64,000 nucleotides of DNA from Dictyostelium discoideum (lineage: Eukaryota): the NCBI GenBank assembly GCA_000004695.1, contig CM000154.2, forward strand, positions 1,600,001-1,664,000, written 5' to 3'. The notes beneath the pieces are model-generated. The model did not search any database. It saw nothing but the letters and a program-made list of their open reading frames with translations, and had not been told where the DNA came from. This document shows, piece by piece, positions 798-7,192 of this stretch. Positions within the stretch are counted from its first letter, which is position 1. Each line of letters opens with the position of its first letter. The position numbers and the translations under genes were made by a program.

Positions 798-1249
798 AAA
801 ATAAAATAAGTGTGTTAATATAAAATAATATTAATATTTAAAAATTATTTTTTAAAAAAAATAAAATCTTACTTAAACAATTTGCTAAAATAATACCAAT
901 ATTTTGAAATAATTTACAAAATATTAAAGTGAATAATAAGTAAATGAAACCAATTATAATTAATACCCAATTAACAGTTTTTAATTGATCTTCTTTTGCA
1001 ACACTATGAACAAATGATTCAGAAACACCATTAATTGCTAAAAATCCAACATAAATACAATAGAAACCTAATAAAACACCAGCATTTGTATCTCTAAATT
1101 TATTATTATATAATAAATTTAATAATAAATGTGAAAAACCTGGTCCAAAACAAGTAAAAACTAATGAAACTAAAATTAAAAATTTCATAATTACAATTAA
1201 TACATTCGCACCATTTTTAAAATCATCATTATTATTATTATTTTCTTGA

Positions 1250-1308
<59 letters not shown>

Positions 1309-1708
1309 GATTGTTGGAAATAATTTTGGAAACATTAAAAAACAAGTTTCTTCAATTGGTAAAAATAAAAATCTAACAATTAATGAACCTAAATTTGATA
1401 CGATTGCAAAAATAGCTTGACCTTGATTTGTCTCTGAAAAGAATAAAACAAATTTTTCACCCTCTTGTAATAATAATTTATAAATTGATTGCCATGTATA
1501 AAGTAATGATAATTTAATTAAATTTCTATCAATTCTAGTTGAAAATTTTGGAAATAATTGATCAATTGATTTAAAACAATTTGAAAATTCTTTATTATCT
1601 TTATTTTTATTATTATTAATTATATTAATTAAAAAATATCCAAAATATCCAATTACTAATGTTAATGAATATAAAATTTGTGCATATCCAAATCCAATTA
1701 ATCCCATC

Positions 1709-1739
<31 letters not shown>

Positions 1740-2764: not shown

Positions 2765-3564
2765 TTATTTATTTGATTTAATTAAACTAAAGAATTCAGC
2801 ACGAGTTCTAGAGTCTTTTTCAAAAATACCGCAAACAGATGAGGTGACAGTACTTGCACCTGGTTTTTGTACACCTCTCATAACCATACACATGTGTGAT
2901 GCTTCAATTACGACGGCAACACCCATTGGATTTAAGTGAGCTTGAATTGCTTGTGCTATTTGTCTGGTTAAACGTTCTTGAACTTGTAACCTTCTGGCAA
3001 AAATTTCAGCAACTCTTGCTAATTTACTTAAACCTAAAACTTTTTGATCTGGAATATAACCAATATGGCATTTACCATGGAATGGCACCATATGATGTTC
3101 ACATAATGAAAATATATCAATATCTCTGACAACAACCATCTATTTTTTTTGTAAAAATAAAAAATAAAAAAATAGTTAGTATTTATAGATCTATATAATT
3201 GTGTATGTTTATATATATAAAATTTTATATAAAAACTTACTTCATGATGATTTTCATTAAAAATTGCTTCACCAATAACTTCATCAACAGATTGCTCATA
3301 ACCTTGTGTAAAAAATAATAAAGCCTTTGACATTCTTAATGGTGTCTTTAATAAACCTTCTCTATCTGGATCTTCACCTAAACTACTTAATAATGTCTTT
3401 ACTGATGATTGCATTGTATTTAAAACTTCATGGTTATGGATTAATGGTTCTCTCTTCTTTCCAAAATCAACTAATTCCTTTCCTTTTCCATTTGATCTTT
3501 CATAAATTTCTTCATCTTCATTTTCAATATGATTATCTTGGTATGATTTTAAATTGTCACTCAT
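2765..3564 (-). CDS. gchA: GTP cyclohydrolase I. Two exons: complement(join(2765..3139,3241..3564))
   Basis: Near-identical to GCH1 over the catalytic core: IFNENHHE|[65 protein letters not shown]. Intron GTAAGT..ATAG (3140-3240) in phase 0. ATG at 3564. Confidence 0.9.
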
Positions 3565-4183
3565 TTTATTTTATTTGTATATGTATATGTTATTATTGTT
3601 ATTGCTAAAGTTTTATTTTTGTATAAACAATAATTGTTGGATTTTTGAATAATTTTAAAAAAATAAAATATAAAAAAAAAAAAAAATAAATTGTCAGAAT
3701 TTTTTTAATTTAGAAAATAAAATAAAAAAAAAAAAAAAAAATTGAAATGAAATAAAAAAATAAAAAAAAAAAAATGAAATAAAAAAATATTAAAAAAAAG
3801 TTAAAAAAATAAAAAAAATGTGAAAAAATGATTTAATTAATGTTGGTTGGATTATAAAACTTAAGCATTAAAGAAGTAATTTTATGCGGCATTGGTGGGT
3901 TGGGCTCTTTCTTTTTTAAATTCACTTTTTTAATATTTATGATATGTTTATTTCTAATCTTTGGTTTTATTTATTATTTATTGTTATTTTTATTTTTTTA
4001 TCACTTTTTTTTTTTTTTTTTTTTTTTATTGGGCCAAAGAATGTGGTTGTGAAAGTATGAATAATTACATTTATAGAATAGTTTTTTTTATTTAATTTGG
4101 GTTTAATTTTTTTTTTTTTAATTTTTTTTTTTTTTAAAATTACATATATGTCGTGTTGCTTATAATTAGTTTTTAAGATTTCT

Positions 4184-4219
<36 letters not shown>

Positions 4220-4661
4220 AAAAAAAATTGTAGTATGAAAAAAAATGAAAAATTAATGAGAAAAAAAAAAAAAAAGAAAAAAATATTTTTCCTTTTTCTA
4301 GAACGAAAGAATGTTCCCAATTTTTTAAAATTTTTTTTTTTGAATTTTTTTTTTTTTAAATATCCCAAATATTCTGCAAACATTTTTTACAATTTTAAGA
4401 AAACCTATGGTTTATTTTTGATACCATCAAAAAAAACTAAAAAAAATTAAAAAATAAAAAAAAAAAAAAAAAAAAAAAAAACTATCAAGATATTTTTTTT
4501 TTTTTTTTATATCATCATAATTATCAAAACAAATAAATTTTATAAAAAAAAATATAATAAATAAATAAAAAAAAAAACAAAAAACACTAAAAATAGAAAT
4601 AAACTATCAAGATATTTTATTTTTTTATTCTTTTATTTTTTTATTTTTTTATTTTATTTTT

Positions 4662-5141
4662 TTATAAACCTAAATCTGATAAACTTGGATGATCATCAGG
4701 TCTTTTACCGCATGGCCAATGAAATAATCTTTGTGATTCACTAATTGAGAGATCATTTATTGATGCATGTCTTTGAACCATTAGACCAAATTCATTGAAT
4801 TCCCAATTTTCATTTCCATATGATCTAAACCAATTACCATTTAAATCTTTCCATTCATATGCAAATCTGACGGCAATTCTATTACTACCAGCTTGAAATG
4901 TCCACAACTCTTTAATTAGTCTATATTCAACCTCTTTTTCCCATTTCTTTTTTAAAAATTCAACAACTTGTGTTCTACCATTAATAAATTCATTCCTATT
5001 TCTCCATTTTGTATCCAAACTGTATGCAAGTGAAACAGTTTCTGCATTCCTTGAATTCCATGCATCTTCTGCCATTCTAACTTTTTTAATTGCATCTTCA
5101 ATATTATTAAATGGTGGTACTGGTAATTTTATTTCTTGCAT
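4662..5141 (-). CDS. DUF1348 (PF07080)-type small conserved protein, single exon
   Basis: [110 protein letters not shown] matches the bacterial/fungal DUF1348 family end-to-end. True ATG at 5141; the track start at 5147 is a TTG. Confidence 0.8.
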
Positions 5142-5484
5142 TTTCAAATTATTATTATTATTATTTTTATTATTATTTTTCTTTAAACTTTTCTTATTTT
5201 TTTATTTTATTATATTTTTCTCAACTAAAATACCTATATATATATGTTTTATTTTAATTTTAAAATTTTATTTTTTTTTTTAAAAATTAAATTGGATTCT
5301 GTTCTATTGATTCTATTAATCTTTGAATTTTTTGGATTAAAAAGAAAATTCTTTTTGTTGTCAATGAAAATAAAATTAAAAAAAAAAATCTTTTTTTATT
5401 TTTTTTTATTTTTTTTTAATTTTTTTTTTTAATTTCGACAAAAAAGTGTGTGTTGATTTTTTTTTTTTTTAATGTGTGAGGAAG

Positions 5485-7192
5485 ATGATATCATATGAAT
5501 ATTGTGATAGTAGTGATAGCTTCTATTTTAATGATATTCAAGATTTTGATTTTAACCCATGGATAGAAGTAAAAAGTGTTTCTGAAAAAGGTAGATGTGT
5601 ATTTTCAAAGAAATTCATACCAAAGGGTACAATGGTATTTAGGGATATCCCATATGCCGCAATCGTTGATAATCAATTCAAAAGAAATATTTGTACAACT
5701 TGTTTTAAAATTTTATTAGAATCAAATAGACATAATTTTCAAACATGTCCTTCTTGTTTGTGAGTTTATTTTTTTTTTTTTTCTTTTTGTTTAATTTTTT
5801 ACCCCCTCCACCATTTAAAATTTTCCCACTAATCTATTTTTTCTTTTTTTTTTTTTTTAAATTTTTAGTCAAGTTAATTATTGTTCAAATTATTGTAAAC
5901 AGTATAGTAAAATTGAAACTAAACATACAGAATTAGAATGTAAATGGATTCAAGATTTCACAGTTTCATTTAAACATCAAATGGCAGAAGATGATAGAAA
6001 TATTGTATTATTAGTATTAAAAATTTTAGCTAGAAGAATTCATGAAAAACAATCTACAATATTTCATAATAAACCTTTAACAACCAATACTTTTGAAACT
6101 TGTACAAGTAATAATAATAATATAGACTTATTACCAATGATACCAAATGATATACCAGATTTAATTGATCATCTAGATGATTATTTCATTAATTCTAAAA
6201 ATAATAATGAATTTGAAAATGAAGAAGAAGAAGAAGAAGAACAAGAACAAAAAGGAGAAGGAGAACAAGAAGAAAATGAAAATAATGAAAATAATGAAAA
6301 AGTTAAAAAAAAAGTAATAATAATAGATGATAATGAAAAAGAAAAAGAAGAAATAAAGAAATTTAATAAAATTTGGAAAAATGATTTTAAAAGATTAATT
6401 AATATTGCCAAAGTTATTCAAATAATTATTGATGATTCAATAGATAGTTTGGAAAATATAAAATGTGATTATGGATTTGTTGATAATCAAGGTGATACTG
6501 AAATGGTTGATAATTCAATTGATCCAAAAGGATTAGATAAATTGGTTGATAATTTATCAAGTTCAGATTTAAATATCTTAAGATTATTATGTAAAATTAG
6601 AGCAAATTATTTTGGTTTATGGAATTCTGCTTATAAACCAATACCATTAAATTCAATTGATGATGATGATGATGATAATAATAATAATAAAGAGAAACCA
6701 AATAATGATTATTTATGGTGTGGATCTGGTGTATATTTAAAATTGTCATTATTTAATCATAGTTGTTTTCCAAATTGTACAACTTTAATTGAATATAATA
6801 TAAATAAAAAGAATAGTAATAATAATAATGGTAATAATGGTAATAATAATAGTTATGGTGATACTAATCAATTAACAATTTCAATTATAACATTACGTGA
6901 TATTGAAGAGAATCAAGAGTTATTAATTACTTATATACCTTTGAATCAAAAAATTAATGATAGAGTAAAGAGTTTAAAATCAAATTGGCTCTTTCAATGT
7001 GATTGTAAACGTTGTCATTTCGAAAAGATAAATGAAAATCAAACTGAAAAAATTTATAAAGATTCTTGTTGTACAAATCAAAAGTGTTCTGGTGGTTTAT
7101 TGATACCATTGGAACAAAATTCAACTCAAGGTATATGTAGAGTTTGTAAAAACACTTATACATTACCAACTGTATTCTATCCACTAAAATAA
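5485..7192 (+). CDS. SET- and MYND-domain protein (SMYD-like lysine methyltransferase). join(5485..5759,5869..7192)
   Basis: MYND zinc finger spans the intron: CTTCFKIL..QTCPSC-L|F-QVNYCSNYCKQY..H..ECKW. SET core NHSCFPNCTT and post-SET CDCKRCHFEK. Acidic/poly-N insert. Intron GTGAGT..TTTAG (5760-5868). The track start at 5476 is a GTG; the first in-frame ATG is at 5485. Confidence 0.8.

Follow-up and report, generated by a model that had tools for sequence, protein, structure and literature searches.

Two members of the DUF1348 family (Pfam PF07080) provide the closest comparisons for the gene described here. PFL_3262 of Pseudomonas fluorescens, deposited as PDB 2IMJ, is the structural-genomics representative of the family. 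The fungal protein 71cR of Cercospora nicotianae belongs to the same Pfam family as the amoeba protein, is cytosolic and carries no signal sequence. It is induced under cercosporin (perylenequinone) toxicity and confers cercosporin resistance in Neurospora; Cercospora strains with a disrupted 71cR had no phenotype, and the toxin was not detectably modified (PMC4608573). In the literature searched, no experimental phenotype was found for any DUF1348 member beyond 71cR. Most classes of Dikarya contain the family, which is lacking in the sampled genomes of Mucoromycotina/Kickxellomycotina, Chytridiomycota, Neocallimastigomycota and Microsporidia (PMC4608573). The enzymatic NTF2-like superfamily, comprising ketosteroid isomerase, limonene/polyether epoxide hydrolase and SnoaL-like cyclases, shares 8-16% sequence identity with DUF1348. 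Compared with these enzymes DUF1348 has an extra conserved C-terminal tail of 20 residues, and it is a member of none of their families.

A further point of comparison is the set of 16-18 classical candidates for bacterium-to-Dictyostelium transfer, with ThyX, IptA, DUF885, DUF1121, DUF1289 and DUF1294 among them (Eichinger 2005; revisited in PMC3188802). Like DUF1348, these genes encode bacterial-type domains, have bacterial nearest relatives, are integrated in the genome and are conserved in other dictyostelids, and their role in the host is often unassigned.

The DUF1348 gene and its product

The gene lies in a stretch of 64,000 nucleotides of Dictyostelium discoideum DNA, the whole of which is called the window here. 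An uninterrupted open reading frame (ORF) of 159 codons occupies positions 4662..5141 on the minus strand, running from an ATG at 5141 to a TAA at 4662-4664. The following features were identified from the sequence, translations, sequence comparison and Pfam matches:

841..1722, minus strand: Rft1 gene, a neighbour
2765..3564, minus strand: GTP cyclohydrolase I gene in two exons, both matching Pfam PF01227; same position and orientation beside DUF1348 in D. firmibasis
3565..4661, no strand: AT-rich spacer from the DUF1348 stop to the GTP cyclohydrolase I start, GC 0.11-0.18, with long A/T runs and low-complexity ORFs only
4662..4664, minus strand: stop codon TAA
4665..5141, minus strand: single-exon coding sequence of the 159-aa DUF1348 / NTF2-like protein
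4884..4895, minus strand: codons of Q83-A84-G85-S86, containing a 2-residue insertion relative to bacterial KELWAFT--DNRIAV
5097..5108, minus strand: codons of N12-N13-I14-E15; one residue more after PPF than most family members have
5142..5484, no strand: AT-rich spacer of 343 bp, GC 0.14-0.16, shared with the divergent SET-domain gene
5485..7192, plus strand: SET-domain protein gene with at least two exons (Pfam PF00856), collinear in D. firmibasis

An earlier note, made from the sequence alone, had taken the 159-aa product for a full-length member of DUF1348 and had proposed an HMMER comparison with PF07080. That comparison confirmed the assignment: the profile matched from position 1 to 130 of 130 over residues 9-141 (E = 8.3e-60), with 200.9 bits against a Pfam gathering threshold of 22.1 bits, and all motifs quoted in the note are present. 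A search of NCBIfam with the same protein gave no match. When 48 sequences from bacteria, dictyostelids and dinoflagellates were aligned, the window protein retained all 45 invariant and all 25 nearly invariant columns of the family. It aligned with PDB 2IMJ at E = 2.9e-66 (residues 3-159 against 6-159, 66% identity) and conforms to the NTF2-like alpha+beta cone fold of that structure. The gene product is a cytosolic NTF2-like cone protein without an N-terminal presequence. Because the whole protein is collinear with 2IMJ, there is no space for an intron in the ORF, and the description of the gene as intronless holds; in the D. discoideum genome the lack of introns is weak evidence for transfer.

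The amoeba protein differs from PFL_3262 by the 2-residue insertion in the Q83-S86 region and by one extra residue after PPF. At the gene level it is AT-rich, stands in a eukaryotic context and lies away from any TetR regulator. The dN/dS of the gene is 0.26-0.36 and, by the NG86 method, 0.28 against D. firmibasis and 0.36 against Tieghemostelium lacteum; the DUF1348 gene is therefore under purifying selection.

Some public entries for family members carry wrong propagated names. A D. firmibasis entry in UniRef is named 'Response regulator receiver', and the DUF1348 proteins of Caballeronia catudaia and of a Rhodospirillaceae metagenome-assembled genome (MAG) are named '50S ribosomal protein L21'.

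Genomic context and composition

The placement of the gene between eukaryotic-type genes with compact flanks, as first described, was borne out, Rft1 and GTP cyclohydrolase I lying to one side of it and the SET-domain gene to the other. In D. firmibasis the order SET gene, DUF1348, GTP cyclohydrolase I and Rft1 is kept, and collinearity with the window extends over 12 kb; the evidence for synteny within group 4 comes from this one compared locus. Between D. discoideum and D. firmibasis, DUF1348 is about 85% identical, GTP cyclohydrolase I 97-100% and Rft1 84-94%. Thus, despite its extreme conservation among bacteria, DUF1348 is less conserved in this pair than GTP cyclohydrolase I and no better conserved than Rft1.

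The G+C content is 22% for the window, 11-18% for the flanks of the gene and 0.31 for the DUF1348 ORF. The GC3 of the ORF is 0.15, inside the 0.06-0.24 range of the 33 long ORFs of the window, while that of the Pantoea homologue is 0.56. These values agree with the AT-rich, host-adjusted codon usage that had been proposed. No compositional island was found at the locus, and no tRNA gene in the window. In its DNA the gene therefore resembles host genes throughout and is no contaminant.

The 343-bp spacer at 5142..5484 is presumed to be the promoter region of the DUF1348 gene. In contrast to bacterial loci, this spacer holds no bacterial regulator gene. Similarly, no remnant of bacterial flanking DNA was found in the spacer at 3565..4661. 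The latter, at approximately 1.1 kb, is strikingly long for so compact a region; it includes 20-30-base runs of poly-A/T, and aaactatcaagatatttt occurs in it as two near-repeats, at 4479-4497 and 4602-4620.

Relatives among dictyostelids and bacteria

A single-sequence search of about 5.8 billion proteins, for which the best 120 matches were listed, placed D. citrinum (90% identity), D. dimigraforme (89%), D. firmibasis (85%), Pantoea ananatis (70%) and T. lacteum (71%) at the top. Below these matches followed hundreds of bacterial and metagenomic proteins with 66-73% identity. A profile built from five dictyostelid sequences gave its highest scores, 320-346 bits, to the four database dictyostelids, below which bacteria began at 278 bits. 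No other named eukaryote occurred among the best 120 matches of either search. Likewise, neither D. purpureum nor any member of dictyostelid groups 1 and 2 or of the remaining Amoebozoa appeared among the best 120 matches listed; in the profile search the lowest of these scored 259 bits, so that weaker homologues could fall below them. The earlier note had called for a check of other dictyostelids and Amoebozoa; presence was established in D. citrinum, D. dimigraforme, D. firmibasis and T. lacteum, and within the best 120 matches listed it extended to no other Amoebozoa.

Homologues from 80 bacterial genomes, each representing a species, share 63-69% identity with the window protein; they belong to Gamma- and Betaproteobacteria, Acidobacteria, Cyanobacteria, Nitrospinota, Bacteroidota and others. 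The identity between D. discoideum and bacteria has a median of 69% (58-74%), which lies within the spread of bacteria-to-bacteria comparisons (median 72%). For 71cR the identity to the amoeba protein is put below about 66%, a figure judged from the absence of fungal sequences from the best 120 matches.

The family is also carried on plasmids. DUF1348 genes were found on 292 plasmids, 88 of them conjugative or mobilizable and 84 from Pantoea, and Pantoea megaplasmids gave the best match among the plasmids (71%). These megaplasmids were considered as a donor, since their genes share the longer N-terminal segment with the dictyostelids and have the top bit score. The tree did not support them (5 of 48 replicates), and we retain them as a lead only.

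DUF1348 in other eukaryotes

The family had been called mostly bacterial and fungal. Bacteria and fungi are indeed carriers, but dinoflagellates and brown algae have DUF1348 as well, and the description has to be widened accordingly. One 50%-identity cluster representative was traced to Cladocopium and Fugacium (Symbiodiniaceae), and a search from this protein returned a Symbiodiniaceae/dinoflagellate clade followed directly by Alphaproteobacteria (Xanthobacter, Rhodospirillaceae). In Durusdinium trenchii the gene takes up 5.2 kb for 182 residues on a 643-kb contig and is therefore a genuine nuclear gene with several introns. Among brown algae, Scytosiphon and Hapterophycus carry the family.

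Like the amoeba gene, the Symbiodiniaceae and brown-algal genes are eukaryotic nuclear copies of the same family. They differ from it in having introns and N-terminal extensions, of 20-95 residues in the dinoflagellate and brown-algal copies, both of which the amoeba gene lacks; further, the dinoflagellate clade is nearest to Alphaproteobacteria. The extensions could be targeting peptides. Identity to the amoeba protein was 55-62%, below the bacterial values, for the other eukaryotic copies compared, namely those of dinoflagellates and two unnamed sequences of probable eukaryotic origin.

The extensions seen in long metagenome representatives were also considered as a sign of eukaryotic origin and set aside, as they are probably over-called starts or read-through. 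A 332-aa protein from an ENA metagenome contig joins the C-terminal part of MoaC to a DUF1348 domain with an Ala/Ser-rich insert inside, and may represent a genuine fusion in a eukaryote of high GC or result from read-through in gene calling.

Origin of the dictyostelid gene

The explanation that we consider probable is a single transfer from a bacterium to dictyostelids before groups 3 and 4 split, followed by adaptation to the host and including a role for the product in small-molecule handling. According to this proposal, one bacterial DUF1348 gene without its regulator would have entered the ancestor of dictyostelid groups 3 and 4, would then have taken on the AT-rich codon usage of the host, gained the 2-residue insertion and stayed under purifying selection, and would have obtained a fixed place beside GTP cyclohydrolase I in group 4. 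The amoeba copy, having no TetR partner, would be expressed from the AT-rich spacer that it has in common with the SET-domain gene.

Phylogenetic placement was assessed by neighbour-joining (NJ) of 194 sequences over 154 columns of a MAFFT --auto alignment, using Kimura distances and 200 bootstrap replicates; the tree taxa include no named fungal sequence, and the deep nodes are weak. In this tree the dictyostelid sequences were placed inside the bacterial cloud, with an exact sister group that is weakly supported. None of the 200 replicates united all eukaryotes in any of the three analyses. The smallest clades that join dictyostelids to another eukaryote always hold non-eukaryotes as well, at a minimum of 2-12 depending on the analysis and a median of 117 or more. 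Together with dictyostelid identities of 66-74% to bacteria against 55-62% to other eukaryotes, these results lend support to the note's proposal of a horizontally acquired gene, and a bacterial origin of the dictyostelid gene is well supported by the sequence comparisons. The direction of the transfer and its single timing are our inference.

Vertical descent is the strongest of the alternatives, although an unlikely one. It holds that early eukaryotes had DUF1348, possibly from the mitochondrial endosymbiont, that many lineages lost it and that the similarity of the amoeba protein to bacteria is a matter of extreme conservation. The family does occur in at least four eukaryotic supergroups (PMC4608573 for fungi), and it evolves so slowly that proteins of different bacterial phyla are about 72% identical and similarity discriminates poorly. 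The dinoflagellate copies, with their introns, N-terminal extensions and nearest relatives in Alphaproteobacteria, fit such a descent, as do the weak deep nodes of the NJ trees. Against this, eukaryotic monophyly was never recovered in the three analyses, and the dictyostelid proteins are nearer to Gamma/Betaproteobacteria and Acidobacteria (up to 74%) than to other eukaryotes (62% or less). Within Amoebozoa, only groups 3 and 4 are represented among the best 120 profile matches, and the reported lack of the family in the sampled Mucoromycotina/Kickxellomycotina and basal fungal genomes (PMC4608573) also goes against vertical descent, which would need very many independent losses. The earlier note had named homologues across eukaryotic supergroups, in a tree following species phylogeny, as the finding that would speak against transfer; several supergroups do have homologues, but the tree obtained departs from species phylogeny.

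The group-4 sequences formed a single clade in 99.5% of replicates. Together with T. lacteum they were strictly monophyletic in 28% of replicates with all taxa, in 42% after Dayhoff-6 recoding and in 67% without two low-GC marine MAG sequences. Sequence identity cannot show a single origin, because the D. discoideum protein is 71% identical to that of T. lacteum and up to 74% identical to bacterial ones, and bacterial phyla have a median of 72% among themselves. The insertion is more informative. Among approximately 435 family members with a scannable flanking motif, it is present in all five dictyostelid proteins (the four database proteins and the window protein); the other 431 database sequences comprise 430 with the short form and one with a single extra residue. 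Since it occurs only in dictyostelids in this census, the insertion favours a single acquisition that preceded the split of groups 3 and 4. The 8-residue variant of the segment after PPF is less restricted, being found in 26 of 419 scanned members, including plasmid-borne genes of P. ananatis (PPFNDVQDAIKKVRLAE).

Two separate acquisitions from bacteria, one by group-4 Dictyostelium and one by Tieghemostelium, would account for an identity between the two proteins that is no greater than that of either to bacteria. The T. lacteum gene is a single exon too, and no gene within ±6 kb of it has a counterpart in the window, so that the two loci show no synteny; moreover, two bacterial MAG sequences (Bermanella and Crocinitomicaceae) attach to T. 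lacteum in the NJ tree. We nevertheless regard two acquisitions as very unlikely. Both lineages have the 2-residue insertion at the same site, which was seen nowhere else among the approximately 435 members, and both have the longer PPFNNIED segment. The attraction of the MAG sequences tracks amino-acid composition, their FYMINK fraction of 0.29-0.30 equalling that of dictyostelids and exceeding the 0.22-0.25 of the other bacterial sequences checked, and it is without both of them that monophyly rises to its highest value. DUF1348 was thus most likely acquired once, before dictyostelid groups 3 and 4 diverged, as judged from this shared insertion.

The same two MAG sequences were considered as evidence of the donor and rejected as a likely compositional artefact: they have dictyostelid-like FYMINK fractions, do not contain the insertion and are only 66-70% identical. 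The Bermanella (Gammaproteobacteria) and Crocinitomicaceae (Bacteroidota) MAGs carry DUF1348 proteins that are 88% identical and the same divergent pirin/quercetinase neighbour, which suggests mis-binning or very recent transfer.

A donor among other eukaryotes, such as a fungus or an alga, is a little less probable still than two bacterial acquisitions. Fungi and algae carry DUF1348 and live in the same soil and water habitats as amoebae. However, no fungal or other eukaryotic protein is among the best 120 matches, in which the lowest identity is about 66-67%, and known eukaryotic copies reach 62% at most; in addition, introns and a presequence set the dinoflagellate and brown-algal copies apart from the amoeba gene, which has neither. 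An assembly artefact or contamination with bacterial DNA, conceivable for a mainly bacterial family, is ruled out by the composition of an ORF (GC 0.31, GC3 0.15) lying in 22%-GC DNA between intron-bearing host genes, by the same gene order in the independent D. firmibasis chromosome assembly and by the size of the contigs, about 0.9-4.9 Mb, that carry related genes in four dictyostelid assemblies.

DUF1348 can be compared with the classical candidates for transfer. Orthologues are present in other dictyostelids (D. citrinum, D. dimigraforme, the syntenic D. firmibasis gene and T. lacteum), and the dictyostelid sequences are embedded within bacterial ones in the 194-taxon NJ tree, with weak support for the exact sister group. 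DUF1348 is absent from the classical lists (Eichinger 2005, revisited in PMC3188802), presumably because the list required absence from fungi. That rule, 'not in plant, animal or fungal genomes', excludes a family found in Dikarya, and also in Symbiodiniaceae and brown algae, which weakens membership of the list and not the inference of transfer. A further difference is one of age, as DUF1348 reaches back at least to group 3, whereas the classical lists were dated only to the group-4 ancestor. DUF1348 thus adds one more well-documented bacterial gene fixed in social amoebae, dated before groups 3 and 4 split, to a known kind of event; no general view is changed by it.

Bacterial context and possible function

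In bacteria the commonest immediate neighbour of DUF1348 is a TetR-family regulator, which lies directly upstream in 38 of the 80 loci and is co-directional in 26 cases (median gap of about 34 bp) and divergent in 11; these TetR-linked loci are phylogenetically clustered, with many from Photorhabdus, Caballeronia, Paraburkholderia and Pseudomonas. Other recurrent neighbours are pirin/quercetinase, PNPOx-like and oxidoreductase genes. Beside the amoeba gene there is no TetR regulator, its upstream neighbour being the SET-domain gene.

The fold, the TetR linkage in bacteria and the fungal 71cR resistance result lead us to propose, tentatively and at somewhat less than even likelihood, a ligand-responsive small-molecule role, in which the protein would detoxify or convert a hydrophobic metabolite. 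Like its structural neighbours, the product may use acid/base chemistry in the interior of the cone to bind or convert its ligand, a small molecule that would be hydrophobic and probably polycyclic. For a soil bacterivore, a plausible use would be the handling of a bacterial or fungal metabolite. Dictyostelium, a tractable organism in which the gene is single, small and highly conserved, may be a convenient system in which to study the function of DUF1348.

Members of the family occur in thousands of bacteria, in fungi, in algae and on many plasmids. It is conceivable, although we would not go as far as calling it likely, that dictyostelids, Dikarya, Symbiodiniaceae and brown algae each took DUF1348, as a highly conserved one-gene unit that is often plasmid-borne and TetR-linked, from a different bacterial source and kept it under selection. 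Such repeated capture, if true, would suggest that DUF1348 has an activity that is self-sufficient, of broad use and directed against some widespread small molecule.

In P. ananatis, plasmid NZ_CP035036.1 carries a DUF1348 gene at 196363-196836 that lies directly downstream of lumazine synthase and near acetoin/butanediol genes, without a TetR neighbour.
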